64,000 bases of DNA. It comes from Patescibacteria group bacterium (GTDB lineage: Bacteria; Patescibacteriota; Minisyncoccia; Phycocordibacterales; Phycocordibacteraceae). Shown here piece after piece: positions 2,635-61,799 of this stretch (position 1 is the first letter of the stretch; every line of letters begins with the position of its first letter). Location: NCBI GenBank assembly GCA_040390125.1, contig JAZJYZ010000001.1:6428-70427 (forward strand). Direction: 5' to 3'. A model generated the notes under the pieces. It saw only the letters and a list, made by a program, of their open reading frames with translations, was not told where the DNA came from and did no database searches. Position numbers and translations under genes: made by a program.

Positions 2635-3648
2635 ATGAAAAAGAAAATCCTATACGTCATTACGAAATCAAATTGGGGCGGAGCTCAGCGGTACGTTTTT
2701 GATTTGGCAACAAACCTTCCGAAAGAAGACTTTGAGGTGAAGGTTTTCTTTGGAGGCACGGGAGAAGCGGACGCTTCTTATGGAATGCTTGCCACTAACT
2801 TAAGTATAAAAGGAATACATGGGGAACAGTTGCCAAGCTTCATGCGTGATATTTCTATTTCACGAGACTATAAAACTTTAATACGACTAATTGATCTGTT
2901 TAAAAAAGAAAAGCCTGATGTCGTCCACCTAAATTCGTCCAAAGCTGGAGGCATCGGGTCAGTAGCTGCTCGATGGGCAGGAGTGAAAAATATTATTTTT
3001 ACTGTGCACGGTTGGCCTTTTTTGGAAGACCGCTCAATCTTTGCAAAGACATTAATTTGGTTTGCCTCATGGCTTACAGTATTACTTTGCCATAAAGTCA
3101 TTTGCATTTCTGAATATGATCTGCAAATCGCAAGACACATGCCGTTTGTTGGTAAAAAAACAGTTCGTATTTATAACGGCATTGCTCCACTTGAATTAGG
3201 GTCCGGAGAAAAAATACGCACCACCTTCCCCTTTGGTGTACAGATCACTGGAACTATTGGCGAATTGAACAAAAATAAAAATCAACAAGCACTCATTGAA
3301 GAGGCGAAGAATACACCAGACATGTATGTTGCAATCGTGGGGATTGGAGAAAATTACACTACACTTCAAGAAAAAATAATACAATATAACCTACAAGAAC
3401 GGGTCAAGCTGTTTGGTTTTATGCCCGCAAGCGAGGCACTTAAAGGCTTTGATATCTTCACCTTACCATCCATAAAAGAAGGTCTGCCTTATGTGCTCTT
3501 AGAGGCGAGAGCGGCAGATCTTCCGATAGTTGCGAATCGCATCGGAGGCGTGGGTGAGATTTTGGATGCTAAGGACTTGAGTGAATTCTCACTTGAACAA
3601 ATGGTACAAAAAACAACAGCTTTGTATGCCCTGAACTCTGAACTCTGA
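2635..3648 (+). CDS. Glycosyltransferase family 4 (GT-B fold)
   Basis: C-terminal EGLPYVLLEARAADLPIVANRIGG motif typical of GT4. Divergent from the sugar transferase. C-terminus (..ALNSEL*) is encoded by the CTGAACT heptamer repeat. Confidence 0.8.
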   Translation: MKKKILYVITKSNWGGAQRYVFDLATNLPKEDFEVKVFFGGTGEADASYGMLATNLSIKGIHGEQLPSFMRDISISRDYKTLIRLIDLFKKEKPDVVHLNSSKAGGIGSVAARWAGVKNIIFTVHGWPFLEDRSIFAKTLIWFASWLTVLLCHKVICISEYDLQIARHMPFVGKKTVRIYNGIAPLELGSGEKIRTTFPFGVQITGTIGELNKNKNQQALIEEAKNTPDMYVAIVGIGENYTTLQEKIIQYNLQERVKLFGFMPASEALKGFDIFTLPSIKEGLPYVLLEARAADLPIVANRIGGVGEILDAKDLSEFSLEQMVQKTTALYALNSEL

Positions 3649-3653
3649 ACTTA

Positions 3654-5551: not shown

Positions 5552-6491
5552 TCATTTCTCTTTTCCGAGCGAGGGACGGATGAAAACGTCTCGTTTACAG
5601 GTTCTAGGTGCTAGTTTTTTAAACACAGAACTCACCTCCGGCGGGTAAGTACTGTTTTGAATATCTTCATGCACTACATTTTTGAGCACCTCCCATAGAG
5701 GAGTATCGTTGCGCATCAATTCAGGATGGTATTTTTTCAATCTTTCATAAATATCTTTTTCTGCTTCGTCAACGACTTTTATTTCAAGAGCAAAGTGACC
5801 TTCGGTACGAAGTGCCTCACCTGGTGCTGTCTGAACCGGAAATTGCTCGGCGTTGATTGTACGATATTGCTCAACAGCTGAACCCGTAAGCCGCTCTTTC
5901 CAGTCGTCAATGCTAATTTCCCATTCGCCAGTTTTTAAGTTCTTAGTGGGATTTACTGTCGTGTGGATATACAGAAGTAGTTTTTTAAGAAAGTATAATC
6001 GCTTTTCTTCCTCGGTCTGAGGTTGTATCCAACCACCACCTGCCTCGTGAGAAAAACGTGTATCGCTTGCTCCTGCCACTTCCACTATCAGCGGATCAAC
6101 ACCTCTCTCTAGAAGAACTTGAGAGCCTTCTTTATCTATCGCCTCACGCTCAGCAGTAGTGATTTCTTCAACCTTATGTCGCTTATACTGCACGCGTCGC
6201 ATTGGCATATTCAGAACTGCAGCACTGGATAAAATACGCTGATCATCTTTTGAGAGATTGAGAAGCTTTCCTAAGTTCACTGCGACAACGCCTTGGACAA
6301 GTGCGCGCATCTTAAGACCTTTCCATCCCTCTCTCTCACCCACCTCATCAAAGCCGTGCTCAAAACGATCGTCAGTGAGGTGTTCGAGTTCATTCGAAAA
6401 AACCTCACGACCAACATGCGCAAGATATGCATCTATCATTTCAGCACTTGGAGTCTGCTCTGTGACTTTCAATCCTTCTCTCTTTTTCATT
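5552..6491 (-). CDS. Hypothetical protein
   Basis: Long ORF (up to 6610) with no recognisable motif. Start uncertain. Lies immediately 3' of the 5S rRNA on the same strand. Confidence 0.4.
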
Positions 6492-6683
6492 TTTTGAGTG
6501 TGAGTCTTAGAAAAAATACATCCAGAAGCTGGTTTTATTAATCTAATTTTTTGTGACAATTTGCACACTCCGTAGCCCAAAACGCATTTGTGAAACCGCA
6601 ACCACCGCATGTTGGACGTCTTTCAAAATCTTCCATAGTGTTGCCGCAAATCTAAACTTTTAAACGTAAAAATCAAATTCTTA

Positions 6684-6792
6684 GTGCTGGCGTCTACTTA
6701 CTCTCCCCTTACGAGTACCATCAGCGCACGTGGGCTTAACTTCCGAGTTCGGAATGGGATCGGGTGTGACCCCACTGCAAAAACACCAGCAC
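6684..6792 (-). rRNA. rrf: 5S ribosomal RNA
   Basis: Reverse complement matches the 5S consensus (..CCGAACUCGGAAGUUAAGC..GGUACUCGUAAGGGGAGAGUAAGUAGACGCCAGCAC) with terminal helix I pairing. Confidence 0.85.
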
Positions 6793-6975
6793 TAAAAATT
6801 CGATTCACTCATCACAAAGAAAACACCGAGCACAATATATACGTTATGGATTTCCACGCTTCCCCGCAGAATCGGCGAATTAGTACTTCTTGGCTCAATG
6901 CATTACTGCATGTACACCTAAAGCCTATCAACGTGATCATCTCTCACGGGCCTTAACGATACCTAATCTTGGAGG

Positions 6976-7014
<39 letters not shown>

Positions 7015-7151
7015 CGACATAGCTACCCTGCAATGCCGCGGGCGCGACAACAGGCAGACCAGAGGTCAGTTCATCCCGGTCCTCTCGTACTAAGGACGAC
7101 TCTCCTCAAGTATCAACGCTCATAGTAGATAGGAGACCAACCTGTCTCACG

Positions 7152-7563
7152 CATGTTTTCACGAATTACCTTCGTGCATTGGACTGTAACTTCATCCGTT
7201 CTGGATGTTCAACATTCAGTCTCTAGAGGCAAAGTAGTTTTGAGTATTGAGTTCTGAGTTCAGAGTTAAAACTCTAGACTCGGAACTGGGAACCCTGAAC
7301 TAACTAATTCCCTCGGTATTACCCTTCGCATAAGCGAATTGGGCTTCACCGATATAAGTTGATTTCTTCTTGCATGTTCCCATGCAAGACCGCCGTGATT
7401 GGTTGATTTCTTTTTCTTTTTGTCTGACGAAAGACCTTTTATATATTTCGAACAACTTTCATTTCTCGATTGGGCTCAGACTGTCTAAGCGGGAAAGTAG
7501 AGAGTGGAATGTGGAGAGTAGTTTAACTACCTTCTACACTCTACCTACTACCTTCTAACCTAA
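7152..7563 (-). other. Intervening sequence in 23S rRNA at the E. coli L2593 (I-CreI homing) site; candidate ORF-less group I intron
   Basis: The conserved sequence GGGUU(C/U)AGAACGU|CGUGAGACAG is split by 412 nt. The 5' exon ends in U and the insert ends in G (omega-G-like). The insert has no ORF and contains heptamer repeats plus a GA-rich hairpin element. Confidence 0.55.
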
Positions 7564-7595
<32 letters not shown>

Positions 7596-9937
7596 TTGGC
7601 GAACAGCCAAACCCTTGGAACCTTCTCCAGCTCCGGGATGTGGTGAGCCGACATCGAGGTGCCGAACTCCGCCGTCGCTATGGACGCTTAGGCGGAACTA
7701 GCCTGTTATCCCCAGAGTAACTTTTATCCGTTGGGCTTCCCCTGCATCTAATGCATAAGGTCGGATCACTATGCTCCACTTTCGTGTCTGCTCGACATGT
7801 ACGTCTCGCAGTTAAGCCAGCTTTTGCCATTACACGACCGGCACGGTTTCCATTCGCGCCTAGCTGACCTTTGTAGGCTCCTCCGTTACTTTTTGGGAGG
7901 AGAGCGCCCCACTCAAACTGCCTGCCACGCACTGTCTCCCAGGTGTTTTGCCTGAGGTTAGAAATTGCAACACATAAGAACGGTATTTCACTGATGAGTC
8001 CACGCCAACCAAAATCAACGCTTCAACCTCTCCCGTCTATGCTACGCATATGCATCGCAATCCCAATACGAAGCTACAGTAAAGCTTCTGGGGTCTTTTC
8101 GTCTAACTATGAGTAACCGGCATCTTCACCGGTATTGTATTTTCACCGAGCAAGTCCTCGAGACAGTTTCCAACTCGTTACACCATTCGTGCACGTCTGA
8201 ACTTACCAGACAAGGAATTACGCTACCTTAGGACGATTATAGTTATCGCCGACATTGACCAGGGCTTATAAAGTCCAGCACACAGTATTGCTACCATGCA
8301 CCAACCTTAGTTGACCTTCTGGCATTGGTCAGGTGTCACCCCCTATACATCCTCTTGCGAGTTCGCAGGGAGCTGTGTTTTTGATAAACAGTCGATTGGA
8401 AATCTTTCGCTGCGGCCTCCTAACTTAATAGGAGGCGGGCCTTATCCCGAAGTTACGGCCGCTGTTTTGCCGAGTTCCTTGAGGACCTCTCACTCGTTCG
8501 CCTTGGTCTACTCGACCTGATCACCTGTGTTGGTTTGCGGTACGGTCTCTCGCCAATTAAGCTTAGAAGATTTTCTTGGAAGCGTGCTCCATGGTATTCC
8601 CCCTGACGAATCAGGAAGTTTATGCTTCGCTTGGGGTAATGTATCCCGGATTTTCCTGAAGATACGCCCTCACGCTACAAACACAAATCCAATTATGTGC
8701 ACCATGTACAACCCTCCGTCTCTCCATCACACTGGCGCGAGGCTAGGGAATATTAACCCTATGTCCATCGCGTTCGGCTTTCGCCATTTGCTTAGGCCCG
8801 GCTAACCCTTGGCTGATTATCAGTGCCAAGGAAACCTCGATCTTTCGGCGTACGGGGTTCTCACCCGTATTGTGGTTACTTGTGCCGGCATTCTCACTTC
8901 CAAACGCTCCAGAATGGGTCACCCCTTATCCTTCATTGCGGTTTGGAACGCTCTCCTACCGCTTGATGCAGACGGATCCGCATTCAAGCCCTCAGTTTCG
9001 GTACCGCGCTTAGCCCCGATTATCTTCGGCGCAGAAATTCTCGATGAGTGAGCTGTTACGCTTTCTTTAAATGGTGGCTGCTTCTAAGCCAACATCCTCA
9101 CTGTCTTAGAACTTCCACTTCCTTGTGATGCACTCAGCGCGGATTTAGGGACCTTAACTTGAGATCTAGGCTCTTCCCTTCTCGACATATGGAGCTTAGC
9201 CCCCATCGTCTAACTGCCTGACTTATACTCGCCGGTATTCGGAGTTTGATAGGATCAACGAGATTGCTCCCTGTTTGATCCTTCCAGTGCTCTACCCCCG
9301 GGAGAAACATCAGACGCCAGCCCAAAAGCTGTTTCGGAGAGAACCAGCTATTACCAGGTTCGATAAGCTTTTCACTCCTTGTCACAAGTCATCCCAAGAC
9401 GTTATACGATCAACGGGTTCGGGCCTCCATCTGTCTTTCGACAAACTTCACCCTGCTCATGACAAGCTCACCTGGCTTCGGGTCTTACGTACGCGACTTT
9501 TCGCGCTATTCACACTCGGTTTCCCTTCGGCTCCGGGCTAACGCCCTTAGCCATGCCGTGTACGTAAACTCGCCGGCTCATTCTTCAATAGGCACGCCGT
9601 CGAGGTGCAAGCACCTCTTCGACTCCTTGTAGATGTGTGGTTTCAGAACTATTTCACTGTCCTCATCGGACTACTTTTCACCTTTCCCTCACGGTACTGG
9701 TTCACTATCGATCTCTATAGATATTTAGCCTTGCCGGTTAGTCCCGGCAGATTCATCCAAGCTATTCATGTCTCGGATTACTCAAGAACGATAACAAGAA
9801 AGTGACTTTTGTTTCGCGTACGGGACCGTTACCCTCTAGGGTTCTGCTTCCCAGCAGATTCCGCTACAAAAATCATTGATGACTTCCCTTCCATAAATGG
9901 AACGCTATCGCCTTACAACCCCGCACACAGCACATTG

Positions 9938-10022
9938 CATGCGATGCACTTTAGAAAGTAGAAGATAGTGGGTAGAAAGTAGTTCAGAAAACTACTCTCG
10001 ACATTCCACTCTCTACTCTCTA
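9938..10022. repeat. About 80-nt hairpin repeat element inserted at a helix tip in 23S domain I
   Basis: About 85% identical to 7478..7556 inside the intervening sequence, in inverted orientation (AGTAGAGAGTGGAATGT[GC]GAGAGTAGTTT..ACTAC..TTCTAC). Flanked by complementary arms GUGCGCAGCACAGUGCAU / AUGCAAUGUGCUGUGUGCGG. Confidence 0.5.
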
Positions 10023-10653
10023 AGCATCCTATGCACTGTGCTGCGCACGGTTTGGGCTTCTCCCGTTTCGCTCGCCGCTACTCGGGGAATTCCAGAATCC
10101 CGGTCCCTTTGCAAAATAAATTTTGCAGAGAGACCGAGATATCCTGTTGGTCTCTTTTCCTCTAGGTACTGAGATGTTTCACTTCCCTAGGTGCGCTCCT
10201 TTGACACACGCCAAAGGTATCTTCCGTAAGAAGATGGGTTTCCCCATTCGGACATTTTCGGATCAATGCTTGCTCGTCAGCTCCCCGAAACTTTTCGCAG
10301 ACAGGCTACGTCCTTCATCGCTCTATAGAGTCTAGGCATCCACCACACACCCTTCAAACTTCCACGAGGAAGCTTGAAAACCACATAACGATTCTGTTCA
10401 ATTACGAACAGTGATTTTTTATTATGCTCGGTGTTCTCTTTGTGATGAGTTGTCAATGAACTGATGAATGAGAGAACAAAAAAGGCCGCTTTTGGCGACC
10501 TAGATACAGGAGCTTAAAAGCTACTGTCTAGCGTCGCATTTCGCCTCTAGTGTTAGTACTCATAAACCTTTGAGTAGAATACGCCCCGAGCTGGGTTATG
10601 TCAAGGAAATGCAGGCTCGTTTGGGAAAATTGACCCCTGAAAAGAGCCCCAAA

Positions 10654-11118: not shown

Positions 11119-11168
11119 AAGCTGAAAGCTAGAAGCTGTAAGCTGACAGCTTTCGCACTTTGTGCGAA

Positions 11169-11956: not shown

Positions 11957-12056
11957 GCTACAGGCTAGCTTTCAGCTTTCAGCTTCTAGCTTATAGCTTT
12001 AAAAACAAGGGTTTCTTCCCCAGCTGGAAGCTGAAACCTGACAGCTGGAAGCTAAT
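11957..12056. repeat. AGCT-based degenerate heptamer tandem repeats (AGCTNNN)n
   Basis: GCTAGCTTTCAGCTTTCAGCTTCTAGCTTATAGCTTT...CAGCTGGAAGCTGAAACCTGACAGCTGGAAGCTAATG. 7-nt periodicity anchored on AGCT. Confidence 0.9.
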
Positions 12057-13483: not shown

Positions 13484-13563
13484 GTTTCAGCTGCCAGCTG
13501 TCGGCTTTCAGCTTAAGCTTCTGAATTAAAAGCTAAAAGCTGGCACCTGGAAGCTGGAAGCTT
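13484..13563. repeat. AGCT-based heptamer tandem repeats between rplL start and rplJ end
   Basis: GGTTTCAGCTGCCAGCTGTCGGCTTTCAGCTTAAGCTTCTGAATTAAAAGCTAAAAGCTGGCACCTGGAAGCTGGAAGCTTT. Confidence 0.9.
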
Positions 13564-19802: not shown

Positions 19803-19914
19803 AAAGCTTCCAGCTGTCAGGTTCCAGCTTTCAGCTTTTGGCGAGAAAGTGCTTCCGAGATGCACCCCCTCCTCCCTGTAAGCTAGAAGCTAGAAGCTAG
19901 AAGCTAGAAGCTTT
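19803..19914. repeat. AGCT-heptamer repeats including perfect (AGCTAGA)x4
   Basis: AGCTTCCAGCTGTCAGGTTCCAGCTTTCAGCTTTT ... GTAAGCTAGAAGCTAGAAGCTAGAAGCTAGAAGCTTTC. Confidence 0.9.
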
Positions 19915-27139: not shown

Positions 27140-27161
27140 ATTTTTTATTATTTTTTGTTTA

Positions 27162-27196
27162 AAGCTGGAAGCTGACAGCTGGCACCTGAAAGCTAG
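27162..27196. repeat. AGCT-heptamer repeats inside the ssb-rpsR intercistronic spacer
   Basis: AGCTGGAAGCTGACAGCTGGCACCTGAAAGCTAG. The core AGCTTTCAGGTGCCAGCT also occurs at 26571..26601 and 28330..28364 in either orientation. Confidence 0.9.
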
Positions 27197-27654: not shown

Positions 27655-27752
27655 GATTAGAAGGTTGAAGGTTGAGAGTGGAGGGTAGTAAACAACTGAA
27701 TGATTGATTGATTTTCCATTATCTACATTCTACCCTCTACTTTCTACTCACT
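27655..27752. repeat. GA-rich/CT-rich arm hairpin element (GAGAGTGGAGGGTAG family) in rpsF-ssb spacer
   Basis: GAAGGTTGAAGGTTGAGAGTGGAGGGTAGTAAAC...CCATTATCTACATTCTACCCTCTACTTTCTACTC. Family members at 7478..7556, 9938..10022, 35499..35600, 49292..49378 and 50895..50925. Confidence 0.7.
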
Positions 27753-28283: not shown

Positions 28284-28356
28284 TGTCCGAAGAGCGTACC
28301 ATGGCTCGCCCGTTGAGGCAACGGGCGACTAGCTTTCAGCTTTCAGGTGCCAGCTT

Positions 28357-29166
28357 TCAGCTTTTGAGACCAAACATCCGGAGGGCGTTTTGGACGGTAG
28401 CTTCTCGAGCGACCTCATCTGAAACGCTGCGAATTGAAGCGATAGCCCCGACTATGTACTTCACGTATGAGGGTTCGTTCCTCCTCCCCCTAAAAGGGTT
28501 TGGAGTAGCGTACGGAGCATCAGTTTCAGTCATTAACATCTCAAGTGGTGCAAATTTCACTACATCATCGTATTCACGGGCAAAAGTGAGCACGCCAGTG
28601 AATGATGTTGTGAAGCCAATGGTGTAAAACCGCCTTGCGATATCAACGGTTCCAACAAAAAAATGGATATTGCCTCGAAGCTTTTCACCCACTTCTCTTT
28701 TCTTTGATTCCAGCATTACAAGCATATCGAGGTATGTGTCGACAGTACCTCGAGAAGGCCTACCGTGAATCATTAATGGTTTGTCGTATTTAATTGCAAA
28801 ATCGACGTGTTTCTCAAACTCCCGCATCTGGCGTTTTTTCCCAGCCTCTCCGTCTTTGAGATGGAAATAATCTAGTCCGCACTCCCCTATTCCCACGACT
28901 TTCGGATTCAGAGTAAGTGATTTGTATTCGCTCTCTGAAAAAGTCTCGTTCTCTGTATCATTGGGATGCAAACCAACTGTCGCAAAAAAACCCTCCTTCC
29001 CTTCTCCAAAATTCACTGCCTCTTCTGAGGTTGCTTTATTTACCCCGACCGTGATAGTCCAAACACTGTCATCACGCATCCGTTGCAAAACTTCCTCAAG
29101 GTCTTGATCGTATTCCTTGAACGTAACGTGAGAATGAATATCGAAATAGCGTGGCACACCATGCAT
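28357..29166 (-). CDS. tatD: TatD family metal-dependent hydrolase (DNase)
   Basis: N-terminal FDIHSH motif, and GECGLDYF, IHGR, TDAPY motifs of the TatD/TIM-barrel family. Start taken at the internal ATG 29166. Confidence 0.85.
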   Translation of the reverse strand: MHGVPRYFDIHSHVTFKEYDQDLEEVLQRMRDDSVWTITVGVNKATSEEAVNFGEGKEGFFATVGLHPNDTENETFSESEYKSLTLNPKVVGIGECGLDYFHLKDGEAGKKRQMREFEKHVDFAIKYDKPLMIHGRPSRGTVDTYLDMLVMLESKKREVGEKLRGNIHFFVGTVDIARRFYTIGFTTSFTGVLTFAREYDDVVKFAPLEMLMTETDAPYATPNPFRGRRNEPSYVKYIVGAIASIRSVSDEVAREATVQNALRMFGLKS

Positions 29167-36210: not shown

Positions 36211-39200
36211 CGAGAGATTCTCCTGTTTCCTTACCACTAAGGTTTGTCATTTTCATAAGATCATTCCAGTTAGCCTCAACTAAATCTGACTTCTCTGAAG
36301 GGAAAATAAGAGTCGCTGACTCTTTTGGTTGAAGGTTTGCTTTCTTTCTCAAGTCCTGAATCTCACGAACGAGCTCTCGAAACTCCCCTTCTCTCTTTAG
36401 TGTCTCGGTAATGTTTGTATCAAGAACGACTTCGCCTTTGGGAACAACTTCATCAATAACTACATTTTTAACATTCAACTCATCCTTAACAAGCTCCAAT
36501 AGTTCCGTCCTCCCTCTAAGCTCTGGACTCTGAACTCTGAACTCATTCAGCGGTTGCCTCACCTTTACCCCCGCCTTCTGTCTCGCTTCAAGCCCTAAAG
36601 AAACTACTTTGCGTACTTCTTCCATCTCTCGAAGCAACACTTCATCTACCCTTAGAGCACGAGGCCATTCTGAGAGATGTACACTCTCTGGCGCACCATC
36701 TGCTTTCACTTTTTGGTAGGCATATTCAGCAGTGAACGGAACGAAGGGAGCAGAAACTTTTGCAAAAGTTTCTATAACATGACGCAATGTCGAAAGTGCG
36801 TGAGCCCCATCTTCTCCGGTTTCTTTAAAACGGTCACGAGAACGTCGAAGAAACCACGTTGAAAAATCGTCAACAAATAATGCGAGCGGGCGTGTTGCAC
36901 GATCAAGCTCGTACGCATCCATACCCTTTTCGACTTCACTAATTACTTCACTCATGCGAGAAAGAATCCATCTATCTAAGGGGTGCGTACTTGGAGCTGT
37001 AGCCAGAGTACTCTCATTTTTATACAATTCATAAAAAGAAATCACATTGAGAAATCTTCCGATAAGTTTTGAAGCAATTTCTCCCACTCCTTTTTCTGAA
37101 AAATTTAAATCTTCTGCACGCATCAATGGTGACGCCAACAAATAATAACGAATAGCATCTGCGCCGTATTTTTCCAACACTTCAACGGGATCAGGATAAT
37201 TTTTCAGACGTTTGGACATTTTTTGCCCATCTTCAGCGAGAACAATTCCGTTCACAATCACATTTTTATACGTCGCCTTGCCGAAAAGCCCAACCCCTAA
37301 AACTAAGAGCGAATAAAACCAGCCTCTTGTCTGGTCGAGACCTTCTGCAATAAAGTCTGCTGGGTAGCCAACGCCTCCAGTTTTCAATTTCCAGTTTTCA
37401 ATTTTCAATCCGGACTTTGGATCAAAAACATCTTTGTTTTCAAACGGGTAATGATTCTGCGCATACGACATTGAGCCAGACTCAAACCAGCAATCAAAGA
37501 CGTCGTGTACCCTCTCAAGCCTCGTGCCGTCAGAGGCAACAAGAACAACCTCGTCGATATAAGGACGATGATAATCAAGTTCAAAGTTTTCGTTGTGTGG
37601 AAGTGGAGTAAAAGGAAACTCTATTATTTCAGCATTTTTTAGAATCGGAAGTGGTCCATTTTTTTCAAGACTCCGAAATGTAAAACCTCCCGCAACAAAA
37701 CTAAGTCCACGTGCTGCCCCCGCATGAGTTATAAATACTATGTTTTTGTTAGCGTATTTTTTTTCAATTTCATACAGAAAATTCCCAGTTCTCTCTACTA
37801 ACTGTGCAAAATTTTCTCCACTGGAAAACTGTTTGTGCGGACTGTATATATAATCATGTTCATAATATTGCAACATGGTTGTAAGAGGTTTGCCTTCATA
37901 TTCAGTACTTTCCCGCCATTCAACAATACGCTCATCGTAAATTACTCTATCAATCGGGAAACCGCTTTGTTTACAAAATATTTCGACCGTTTCTTTAGTT
38001 CTGAGCAAAGGCGAAACAAAAATAAAATCAATCTTTTCTTTAAAAGCGGAGGCTGACTTTAACACCTGCTCTTTCCCTAGTTCCGTTAATGAAGCATTGA
38101 GTTCACCGGACTGTGTCCAAACTTGCATCGTGTTATTTTCAGCCTGACCATGTCGCATCACAAAATACTTGTTGCCTGATTTTTTTGTGTGCGACTTCAA
38201 CTCGTCGAGTGAACCTATGAAAGTATTTTCTTTTGTCTTTGGATTCCGCCATACGGGAATTGGCGCACCCCAATACCGAGCTCGTGAAATAGCCCAATCC
38301 CTAGCATTCTCAAGCCAATTGCCGAAGCGCTTCTCGCCGACCTCTTTCGGCACCCAGTGTATCTTTTTATTTTCGGAGACGAGCTTGTCTCTAAACTTCG
38401 TCACTTCTACAAACCACGATGACGATGCGTAATTCAAAAGAGGGGTATCGCAACGCCAACAATGCGGATAGGAATGTATTATTTTTTCCTTTGCAAAGAG
38501 TAACCCCTTCCCTGCAAGATATTTAATAACCGCAACATCGGTCGACTGTGAGTCATCTTTCGGCTTTGCTTGGAGTCCCTTGAAATCAGAAACAACATCG
38601 ACAAAAAAACCATCCTTGTCGACATGGTGCACTATCGGGATTCCTTCTTTTTGTGCGAGCTCCAAGTCCTCAGCACCGAATGCAGGAGCTAAGTGCACCA
38701 ATCCTGTTCCGCTATCATTAGTCACATAGGGAGCGTGATATACCTTCCACGCTCTCTCCTTCCCTTTGATGTTATGGTCTGCAAAATAAGAAAATGGCGG
38801 CTTGTATGATTTCCCAACAAGTGCGCTTCCAAGAAATTCTTTTTCTATTTTGTAACCAACTTTAATTACTTCCAACCTGTCTTTCGCAAGGATATATTTT
38901 TCATCCCCCACTGAAATCTTCACATAGGTAAAATCTTTATGTACCGCAGCCGCCATATTTCCAGGCAGAGTCCACGGAGTTGTTGTCCAAGCTAAAAGAA
39001 AAGTCCCCGGTTCATCAATCAGTTCCAACTTTACCGTGACAGAAATATCCGTGATGTCTTTGTATCCTTGTGCAACTTCAAAGTTAGAAAGCGTAGTGCC
39101 ACAGCGAGGGCACAGATGCATTGCTTTAAATCCTTCATACACCAAACCCTTCTTATGGAGATCATTAAATGCCCACCACACGCTCTCCGTGTATGTCGCA

Positions 39201-47231: not shown

Positions 47232-47384
47232 AAGCTGAATAAAGCTGAATAAAGCTGAAATTAATATAACCTTGTATGAGAGAATTGTCAAGGTTTCGTA
47301 AAGTAAGTTCAAGAGTGAATCCTATTTGGATTTTAAAGCTATAAGCTATAAGCTATAAGCTATACGCTATAAGCTATAAGCTCT
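47232..47384. repeat. Tandem repeats (AAGCTGAATA)x3 and (AGCTATA)x7 abutting the thyA start codon
   Basis: AAGCTGAATAAAGCTGAATAAAGCTGAAATT ... AAGCTATAAGCTATAAGCTATAAGCTATACGCTATAAGCTATAAGCTCTTTCTATG(thyA). Confidence 0.95.
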
Positions 47385-50874: not shown

Positions 50875-50976
50875 CGCATTGTGCCCTAAAAGCTGAAAGT
50901 TGGAAGGTAGGGGGTAGAGAGTGGAAGCTGGAAGCTAAACCCTAAACGCTAACCCCTAGCCACTAACCACTAACCC

Positions 50977-51396
50977 CTATTTCACATCTATACCCATCGA
51001 GCGGGCAGTGCCTGCGATGATTTTCATTGCTTGCTCAGTATCTTTGGTATTCAAGTCAGGGATTTTCTTCTCAGCAATTTCCTTGAGTTGTGCTTTTGTT
51101 ATTGAACCTGCTTTTACCGTAGGAACCTTACCCGAACCTTTCTCGAGTCCTGCCCATTTCAAAAGAAGACGTGACGCTGGAGAAACTTTGACAATGAACG
51201 TGAACGAACGGTCGTCCATGACGGAAATCTCAACAGGAAGTATGTCCCCCATCTGGTCTTGGGTTGCAGCATTGAACTGCTGAACAAACTGACCAATGTT
51301 AACGCCAGCTGGACCCAATGCTGTTCCTACTGGAGGCGCAGGCGTTGCCTTACCACCCGGAACCTGAAGCTTAATTTTCTTTACTACTTTTGCCAT
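50977..51396 (-). CDS. rplK: 50S ribosomal protein L11
   Basis: [29 protein letters not shown] is the L11 N-terminal signature. Confidence 0.92.
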
Positions 51397-52700: not shown

Positions 52701-52729
52701 AAAAATTCCGGCATACGCCGGAATTTTCC
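52701..52729. terminator. Hairpin terminator (AAAAATTCCGGCATACGCCGGAATTTT)
   Basis: Perfect stem with A and T runs, 3' of the SIMPL gene, immediately followed by a (CTCTGAA)n tract. Confidence 0.55.
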
Positions 52730-52796
52730 TCTGAACTCTGAACTCTGAACTCTGAACTCTGAACTCTGAACTCTGAACTCTGAACTCTGAACTCTC
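52729..52796. repeat. Heptanucleotide tandem repeat (CTCTGAA) x ~9.5
   Basis: Read directly: CTCTGAACTCTGAACTCTGAA... perfect copies between the SIMPL gene and the promoter region of the secreted coiled-coil protein gene. Confidence 0.95.
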
Positions 52797-61533: not shown

Positions 61534-61607
61534 GGGTGACTACAGGGAATCGAACCCTGATCGAGAGCTCCACAAGCTCCAGTGTTAACCGTTACACCAT
61601 AGCCACC
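61534..61607 (-). tRNA. tRNA-His (anticodon GUG)
   Basis: Reverse complement GGTGGCTATGGTGTAACGGTTAACACTGGAGCTTGTGGAGCTCTCGATCAGGGTTCGATTCCCTGTAGTCACCC folds as a cloverleaf. 7-bp acceptor, anticodon loop UUGUGGA, T-loop GGTTCGATTCC, discriminator C. CCA not encoded. Confidence 0.8.
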
Positions 61608-61664
61608 ATATACTCCACTTCCTTCGCCTTGTGTTTACAGTGAGCGAGTAAAACGAGTCGAAGT

Positions 61665-61748
61665 GTGCCCAGGAGAGGACTCGAACCTCCACGCCCTTGC
61701 GGGCTTCACCACCTCAAGGTGAAATGTCTACCAGTTTCAACACCTGGG
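61665..61748 (-). tRNA. tRNA-Leu (anticodon GAG), long variable arm
   Basis: Reverse complement GCCCAGGTGTTGAAACTGGTAGACATTTCACCTTGAGGTGGTGAAGCCCGCAAGGGCGTGGAGGTTCGAGTCCTCTCCTGGGCA. Anticodon loop UUGAGGU. Class II variable stem-loop GCCCGCAAGGGC. Confidence 0.8.
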
Positions 61749-61799
61749 CAGGTTTTTATATTCTAAGTACTTTTAAGTCTTTTGCAAAGGACGCAAGAC

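Follow-up and report, generated by a model that had tools for sequence, protein, structure and literature searches.

The stretch of DNA analysed here (the window, 64,000 nt) carries a 23S rRNA gene on its minus strand at 6863-10366, which was placed by Rfam RF02541 with 2361.9 bits and with model positions 1-2925 complete. The gene forms a minus-strand 23S-5S pair with a 5S rRNA (6685-6790; Rfam) that lies downstream of it. It measures 3504 nt as compared to the 2925 positions of the model, and the excess consists of a 412-nt insert and two short insertions near the 5' end. An earlier note on this DNA had reported a 412-nt interruption of the 23S gene at 7152-7563; the Rfam placement and a reading of the strand prove this position exact. 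The forward-strand presentation in that note is corrected here, as both the rRNA and the insert belong to the minus strand, and the insert is read from 7563 to 7152.

On this strand the gene reads GCUGGGUUCAGACCGU, then the insert from UUAGGUU to AAAACAUG, and then exon 2, CGUGAGACAGGUUGG. At the junctions of the RNA strand, GCUGGGUUCAGACCGU is followed by UUAGGUUAGAAGG at the beginning of the insert, and GUGAAAACAUG at its end is followed by CGUGAGACAGGUUGGUCUCC of exon 2. Numbering by E. coli K-12 rrlB, in which GGGTTTAGAACGT occupies gene positions 2581-2593, makes the last 13 nt of exon 1, GGGUUCAGACCGU (7564-7576, minus), G2581-U2593, and the first five of exon 2, CGUGA (7147-7151, minus), C2594-A2598. 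Since the rrlB segment ends at 2593, the insert splits 23S at U2593/C2594, the L2593 site to which it had been assigned, and which we take to be the I-CreI site of the Chlamydomonas Cr.LSU chloroplast intron. The upstream exon does end in U and the insert in G, as had been pointed out, and the insert has no ORF of its own; the longest ORF overlapping it comprises 62 aa on the opposite strand. If spliced, the ligated exon junction would read GGGUUCAGACCGU-CGUGAGACAGG (GACCGU-CGUGAG).

The ORF adjoining the 5S gene (5552-6610, minus) is 100% identical to a Patescibacteria MAG protein, the next match being from Kaiserbacteria at 52%. The exon flanks are of the CPR type, GACCGU/CGUGAGACAGGUUGGUCUCC, common to most CPR loci among the matches listed; the non-CPR hosts among the matches listed have GAACGU/...CAGUUCGG and are mainly Acidimicrobiaceae/Actinomycetota, with Omnitrophica, Gammaproteobacteria, Armatimonadota, and Eremiobacteraeota as well. 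Co-conversion of CPR-like flanks from a CPR donor was considered and is moot, the host itself being CPR. Rfam found no 16S rRNA gene in the 64-kb window, including the 54 kb upstream of the 23S-5S pair, so that the rRNA genes are unlinked, and no tRNA-Ile or tRNA-Ala spacer genes accompany the pair, the only tRNAs of the window being at 61535-61749. The missing 16S gene, the CPR-type flanks, and the presence of an intron are all explained by a CPR host.

Group I architecture of the insert

Relatives of the insert were collected by scanning genomes, one per species, for G followed by CGTGAGACAGKTYGGTC and any insert ending in G before C2594. The scan yielded at least 120 loci, nearly all of them in Patescibacteria among the matches listed, and 103 L2593 inserts of 213-1034 nt were excised from the listed loci for comparison. 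By blastn, the insert has many matches among these 103 other L2593 introns (best E values 4e-16, 1.5e-15, and 6e-14), which cover intron nt 141-256, from the guide to P6, and nt 333-412, from P7 to the end.

We aligned the cores of 31 relatives, with the window's copy excluded (alignment A1), and drew their structure by hand. Paired bases fill 91.4% of the cells of A1, as compared to 30-44% after a shift of the 3' partners by 1-3 columns; both sides have changed in 34 of the 51 pairs, and the observed values were not attained in any of 500 shuffles. The covariance model built from A1, R1 (31 relatives without the window, 194 positions), gave a single match on the 64-kb window, at 7146-7405 on the minus strand, with 157.8 bits, an E value of 1.9e-45, and model positions 1-194 complete. 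When the window and 99 comparison loci were searched together, this score ranked 14th among 179 matches, which is within the range of the seed members and in the upper half of the family, and the window's copy keeps every family-invariant position.

The intron begins at its first nucleotide with hairpin X (nt 1-79, 7485-7563), whose arms are the heptamer repeats GGUAGNN / UCYACNN according to its fold and TRF, and which folds with -30.7 kcal/mol (z -4.6). Relatives have a hairpin of varying length in the same place, with covarying base pairs +1 to +4. The next element, ACA plus GUCUGAGCCC (nt 80-92, 7472-7484), is assigned as an auxiliary 5'-exon-binding element by family pairing and covariation. 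An A-rich linker (nt 93-165, 7399-7471), recognised by family comparison, carries the family motif GUCUUUCGUC and is reduced to 15-16 nt in the smallest relatives. Then comes the internal guide UCACG/GCGG (nt 166-174, 7390-7398), in which UCACG pairs with CGUGA of exon 2 as P10, and GCGG pairs with CCGU of exon 1 (-4 to -1) as P1, with G171·U(-1) at the splice site. The guide as a whole, UCACGGCGG, is thus complementary to the ligated junction CCGU/CGUGA with a G·U at the splice site. In 62 family members from the matches listed, the P1 positions pair in 98-100% of cases and the G·U never varies, and the 4 bp of P10 pair in 97-100%; the guide positions are invariant in A1.

The covariance model assigns the remaining helices. 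The P2 hairpin, UCUUGCAUG-GGAA-CAUGCAAGA (7368-7389), has double changes in the family at all seven of its seven pairs. The 5' strand of P3, UCAAC (7358-7362), pairs with GUUGA (7209-7213), P4 is formed by UCGGU (7348-7352) and ACCGA (7313-7317), and the P5-P5a hairpin (7321-7344) has GCCC / GGGU as P5 with a small extension; for the whole block from P3 to P4 (7313-7362), the Rfam alignment of one relative, L098, makes identical assignments. P6, GGG (7310-7312) with CCU (7227-7229), closes the L6 loop in the block 7227-7312, and it is here that the R1 alignment puts the extra sequence of the window's copy: an 80-nt expansion of heptamer repeats (7230-7309) that folds with -27.5 kcal/mol (z -3.8). 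In relatives, L6 is a loop of 4-40 nt or holds a LAGLIDADG gene, such as the LAGLIDADG_1 ORF in the L6 of L102.

The catalytic core, P7-P3'-P8-J8/7-P7' (7177-7223), is supported by the model and by covariation, and has 80-84% blastn identity to relatives. Its P7 5' strand (7217-7223) consists of G341, a bulged A (A342), and GACUG, and pairs with CAGUCC (7181-7186); P7 is 100% paired in the family, with a double change from A-U to G-C in a ratio of 23:8. The bulged A beside a G-C pair is the predicted guanosine-binding site. P8 is the hairpin CAUCC / GGAUG (7193-7207), followed by AAGUUA as J8/7. The segment from P9 to the end (7152-7176) comprises the P9 hairpin CACGAA-GGUAA-UUCGUG (7160-7176) and the 3' tail AAAACAU with the terminal omega G at 7152. 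By eye, CUAGAGACUGAAUGUUGA can be recognised as an R-like and AAGUUACAGUCC as an S-like element. A direct repeat, GAAATCAAC, that flanks the guide and P2 proved coincidental, its upstream copy being the family motif AAYCAAYC and its downstream copy the intron's own P3 strand.

The earlier note had read the insert as a group I intron, and homology, the family covariance model, and covariation bear this out. Its proposal of a manual P1-P9 folding succeeds, every group I element being identifiable by eye in the insert, while the Rfam search that it also proposed gives a false negative: RF00028 (Intron_gpI) has no match on the insert at its gathering score (50 bits) or at E<=10, be it in the 64 kb, in 4 kb, or in a 521-nt slice. 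We explain the miss by the 80 nt inserted in L6 and by a 5' leader that is atypical. Of 17 relatives searched with the same model, 6 have an L2593 intron that scores above its gathering threshold (50.6-63.6 bits), and the Rfam alignment of L098, one of the six, gives the same P3-P9. The RF00028 score is a property of that model and not a defining feature of the group I class. What places the insert in the class is an exon U paired with a guide, P3-P9 with the P3/P7 pseudoknot and covariation, a P7 with a bulged A, and a terminal G. What places it in the R1-defined CPR L2593 family is a full-length model match at the same site in a CPR host, and the 5' module of the family is present as well, namely the hairpin at nt 1 and then ACR plus GUYURAAYCC, complementary to exon 1 -13 to -4. 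The L2593 family of CPR is therefore bona fide group I, only marginally modelled by Rfam, and the window's insert is a full member. We are highly confident that a CPR bacterium has here, in its single 23S gene, an ORF-less group I intron that belongs to a CPR-wide L2593 family.

A different explanation would have the insert fragment the 23S rRNA as an RNase III-type intervening sequence (IVS), cut out without ligation. The ends of such sequences form a long stem as the substrate of RNase III, they lie at helix 9, 25, or 45, and no ligation follows. The insert resembles them as an extra sequence in a 23S gene that needs removal, and two short IVS-like hairpin insertions do occur near the 5' end of the same 23S. 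Fragmenting IVSs are described in bacterial 23S and probably exist in CPR too (PMC11270868). However, the two ends of the insert form no terminal stem of more than 3 bp in the MFE fold, its site is in the stem of helix 93, which is no known IVS helix, and it has a complete, covarying group I core with a guide that matches both exons, which makes fragmentation very improbable. The earlier note had also suggested an intron that is derived or minimal, or else an unusual IVS, which was not confirmed: the P1-P10 core is complete, and the intron is larger than its sisters of 235-250 nt by way of loop expansions.

The P9 loop is GGUAA here, as compared to a GNRA tetraloop, GUAA, in the family and the three closest sisters. 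This extra G enlarges by one base a loop that usually engages in a tertiary contact, and it might weaken that contact. It could be taken, together with the RF00028 miss, the greater length (about 170 nt more than in the sisters, with an 80-nt L6 and a 79-nt hairpin X that could slow folding), and the lack of a maturase or endonuclease ORF, as a sign of a decaying intron, whose core is still recognisable but which self-splices inefficiently and needs host proteins or leaves some 23S unspliced. Against decay, all family-invariant positions are kept and the R1 score lies in the upper half of the family. Moreover, 23S is usually single-copy in CPR, as established knowledge and the CPR rRNA survey (PMC11270868) agree, and presumably so in this genome; retention of the insert in helix 93 would be lethal where there is no other 23S, so strong selection for splicing is expected. 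We regard decay as unlikely.

Proposed recognition of the 5' exon and predicted course of splicing

The guide of this family is far from the 5' splice site. The guanosine of the G·U pair lies at intron nt 61-303 (median 126), and at nt 171 in the window's copy, whose guide is thus about 170 nt from the splice site, far beyond the usual distance. P1 proper has only 4 bp because the nucleotide after GCGG covaries within P2. The exon nucleotides upstream of it, -13 to -4 or -5, have their partner in the intron at 7472-7481; in the window, exon GGGUUCAGAC and intron GUCUGAGCCC are complementary at 10 of 10 positions. In 62 of 73 listed members, the 10-mer pairs with exon 1 -13 to -4 at 9-10 of 10 positions (40 members at 10/10 and 22 at 9/10); among shuffled controls, 0.5% pair at 10/10 and 8% at 9/10. 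Covariation points the same way, as exon -6 has G with C or U and A with U only, and exon -8 has C with G and U with A; the frequent G·U at exon -11 argues for pairing at the RNA level. Since the exon strand runs straight from the auxiliary helix into P1, both can stack, and the two may form a quasi-continuous exon-binding helix of 13-14 bp, with an intron strand split between two distant segments.

Two related pairings were considered and rejected. The helix between the exon and ACRGUCUGAAYCC cannot be the real P1, given that U(-1) faces A in 49 of 62 members, while GCGG has the invariant G·U and lies directly next to the P10 strand. The linker was also examined for an "exon mimic" that would pair with the exon-binding element once splicing is over; no enrichment was seen, with a mean of 6.29 of 8 positions paired as compared to 6.18 in shuffles. 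Besides the family described here, a second CPR subfamily was noticed (for example at five of the loci), with introns that start with CAAA..., a guide at about nt 28, and only GAACCC to pair with exon GGGUUC.

The steps of canonical group I splicing are established, and the elements of this intron can be fitted to them. CCGU of exon 1 and GCGG of the guide would pair as a short P1, in which the canonical U·G occupies the cleavage site, while G2581-C2590, a part of the peptidyl-transferase loop together with the 5' strand of helix 93, would be held by GUCUGAGCCC just after the hairpin at nt 1. Exogenous guanosine, bound in P7 at the bulged A followed by the G-C pair, would attack the 5' splice site, and the 5' exon would be kept between the two steps by P1 and presumably also by the auxiliary helix. 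UCACG of the guide would then align CGUGA of exon 2 as P10, and the terminal G (7152) would replace the cofactor in the G site, so that exon ligation could restore helix 93. For the window's copy, splicing itself, the order of these steps, and a role of the second exon-binding helix are predictions from sequence. Insertions in CPR rRNA genes are removed from transcripts, as PMC11270868 states in citing Brown et al.

The guide sequence GCGG fits CCGU, with C2590, and does not fit the usual exon, ACGU. As it needs C2590, a base of the CPR type, the family is adapted to CPR ribosomes.

Expanded loops and heptamer repeats

Three metagenomic sister introns are almost identical to the window's copy in the 3' half, yet they have only 235-250 nt and no heptamer material. 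Four parts of the window's copy are longer than in the sisters: hairpin X (79 nt vs 25-45 nt in the sisters), the linker (73 vs about 16 nt), L6 (80 vs about 15-20 nt), and P5a. TRF finds heptamer arrays at 7236-7267 and 7526-7562 and an array of period 14 at 7492-7519. The earlier note had observed that the insert shares repeats with the spacers of this genome, which is the case; segment-wise blastn finds paralogues in the rest of the window only for hairpin X and L6, whereas the core segments are at chance level. Its further statement that the insert is "largely built from" such repeats is right as to the presence of heptamers and overstated as to their share, which ranges from about 24% of the intron (TRF arrays, 97 of 412 nt) to 39% (hairpin X and L6, about 159 of 412 nt), and the remainder is conserved ribozyme core and conserved 5' module. 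The repeat hairpins are passengers in two content-tolerant loops, hairpin X and L6, outside the ribozyme.

Nucleotides 43-61 of L6 match CTCTGAA arrays at 36527 and 52734-52794 at 18 of 19 positions. The 5' domain of the same 23S gene has a 114-nt expansion (9928-10042, minus), a hairpin of -58.9 kcal/mol (z -8.5) with heptamer arms, in which 9989-10017 matches hairpin X nt 40-68 (7496-7524) at 28 of 29 positions in inverted orientation. An rRNA expansion and an intron 2.4 kb apart thus contain one type of element in opposite orientations, which suggests recent copying or recombination. The second insertion in the 5' region of the 23S (about 10094-10147, minus, 53 nt) also forms a hairpin; it could be an expansion segment or an IVS of the RNase III type.

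These matches bear on another possibility, namely that the intron of a foreign organism was joined into the contig in assembly or binning, as the window comes from a metagenome-assembled genome. Its loop elements, however, match repeats of the window, including the 28 of 29 within the same 23S gene, its exon flanks are continuous with a full-length 23S, and they carry the CPR-type pair C2590/G2604 required by the GCGG guide. An artefact is extremely improbable.

About 31 tandem arrays of period 7 occur in the 64 kb. A crude ORF map puts 23 of them between genes, even though ORFs make up about 75% of the window. Examples are 3631-3651, 11119-11151, 11967-12053, 13485-13562, 19805-19912, 27161-27194, 27660-27748, 28331-28364, 47336-47382, 50922-50979, and 52729-52795. 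Many are in complementary pairs that give long hairpins, such as 11967-11991 with 12022-12046, and their motifs fall into the families AGCTNNN, TCTACNN/GAAGGTT, and CTGAACT/CTCTGAA. Similar arrays were seen in eight other CPR L2593 introns. Known analogues are the cyanobacterial STRR and the TAACTGA repeats of Beggiatoaceae, and a literature search found no description of heptamer repeats in CPR. We considered whether the heptamers are STRR of a cyanobacterial host and rejected this, as the neighbouring ORF is 100% Patescibacteria and the exon flanks match CPR 23S.

Relation to known introns and significance

The intron is routine for CPR bacteria and represents another case of their documented ORF-less 2593 group I introns. 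In a survey of CPR rRNA genes, insertions were found in 82% of 23S genes, 45% of the insertions were group I by Rfam, and 222 ORF-less group I introns were counted in 23S (PMC11270868). The same survey describes 2593 as a frequent and recurrent group I site in CPR 23S with LAGLIDADG_1 genes, corresponding to "23IS12" of Tsurumaki et al. 2024, and cites Brown et al. 2015 as the first to note CPR introns there (PMC11270868). The window's copy agrees with these introns in host clade and site and, with the 70-odd introns recovered here, in core sequence and structure, and ORF-less and LAGLIDADG-bearing versions coexist; it differs by the heptamer hairpins in hairpin X and L6. Missed by the Rfam model on which the survey relied, it would be counted there as an uncharacterised insertion. 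The window's copy encodes no homing endonuclease (LAGLIDADG, GIY-YIG, etc.) and has no ORF above 62 aa, so it is probably immobile and vertically inherited.

At ten named loci and others, R1 finds several weaker full-length matches per locus elsewhere in the same 23S gene, which means that many CPR 23S genes have more than one group I intron; in the 23S of the window there is a single one. A 153-bit R1 match also occurs in L074 (CAYXOT010000120.1, a 2.8-kb contig labelled "uncultured archaeon"), which is probably a mis-binned CPR rRNA fragment.

The introns at the same site in cyanobacteria (Synechococcus C1/C9, Thermosynechococcus) are group I, often with a single-motif LAGLIDADG gene, and cyanobacterial and chloroplast L2593 introns have a P7.1/P7.2 extension of about 65 nt (PMC1995217). 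The CPR family shares their insertion site, whereas it has a single nucleotide between P3' (GUUGA) and P8 (CAUCC) and no IA-type P7.1/P7.2. By this absence, and with the cyanobacterial introns taken as described in PMC1995217, the CPR family represents a separate structural lineage at this site. Soil MAGs of Acidimicrobiaceae/Actinomycetota have structurally different L2593 introns (nine loci) of 378-740 nt, with exon GAACGU and a guide no more than about 15 nt away from the 5' splice site; rRNA introns at L2593 are thus not confined to CPR. The core of about 190 nt, with its P2, short P5/P6, P8, P9, and GNRA-type L2/L9, presumably recalls the IC3 tRNA-type introns of Azoarcus and Anabaena. 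The CPR family differs from these by its location in rRNA and by a 5' leader of 57-300 nt that separates the splice site from the guide and contains a hairpin and a second exon-binding element.

In practical terms, real rRNA introns of CPR escape the standard Rfam group I model when they have expanded loops, and surveys based on Rfam undercount introns and overcount "uncharacterised insertions". The rRNA genes of such genomes need intron-aware handling in phylogeny and ribosome modelling.

The two-part exon-binding arrangement was not found described in a literature search, and we do not claim novelty for it. That split exon recognition is functional, that the heptamer hairpins are a dispersed element, and that both are undescribed is a tentative proposal, which we think may well not hold in full. 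If it does, the auxiliary helix might serve as an exon anchor that offsets the short P1, or as a checkpoint that couples splicing to late 50S assembly. Exon recognition by group I introns would then have a new structural variant, in which a part of the peptidyl-transferase loop, together with the 5' strand of helix 93, is sequestered until splicing. A split exon recognition that holds nucleotides of the peptidyl-transferase centre may be a modest lead for RNA structure, and heptamer hairpins common to spacers, rRNA expansions, and intron loops may be a modest lead for the evolution of CPR genomes.
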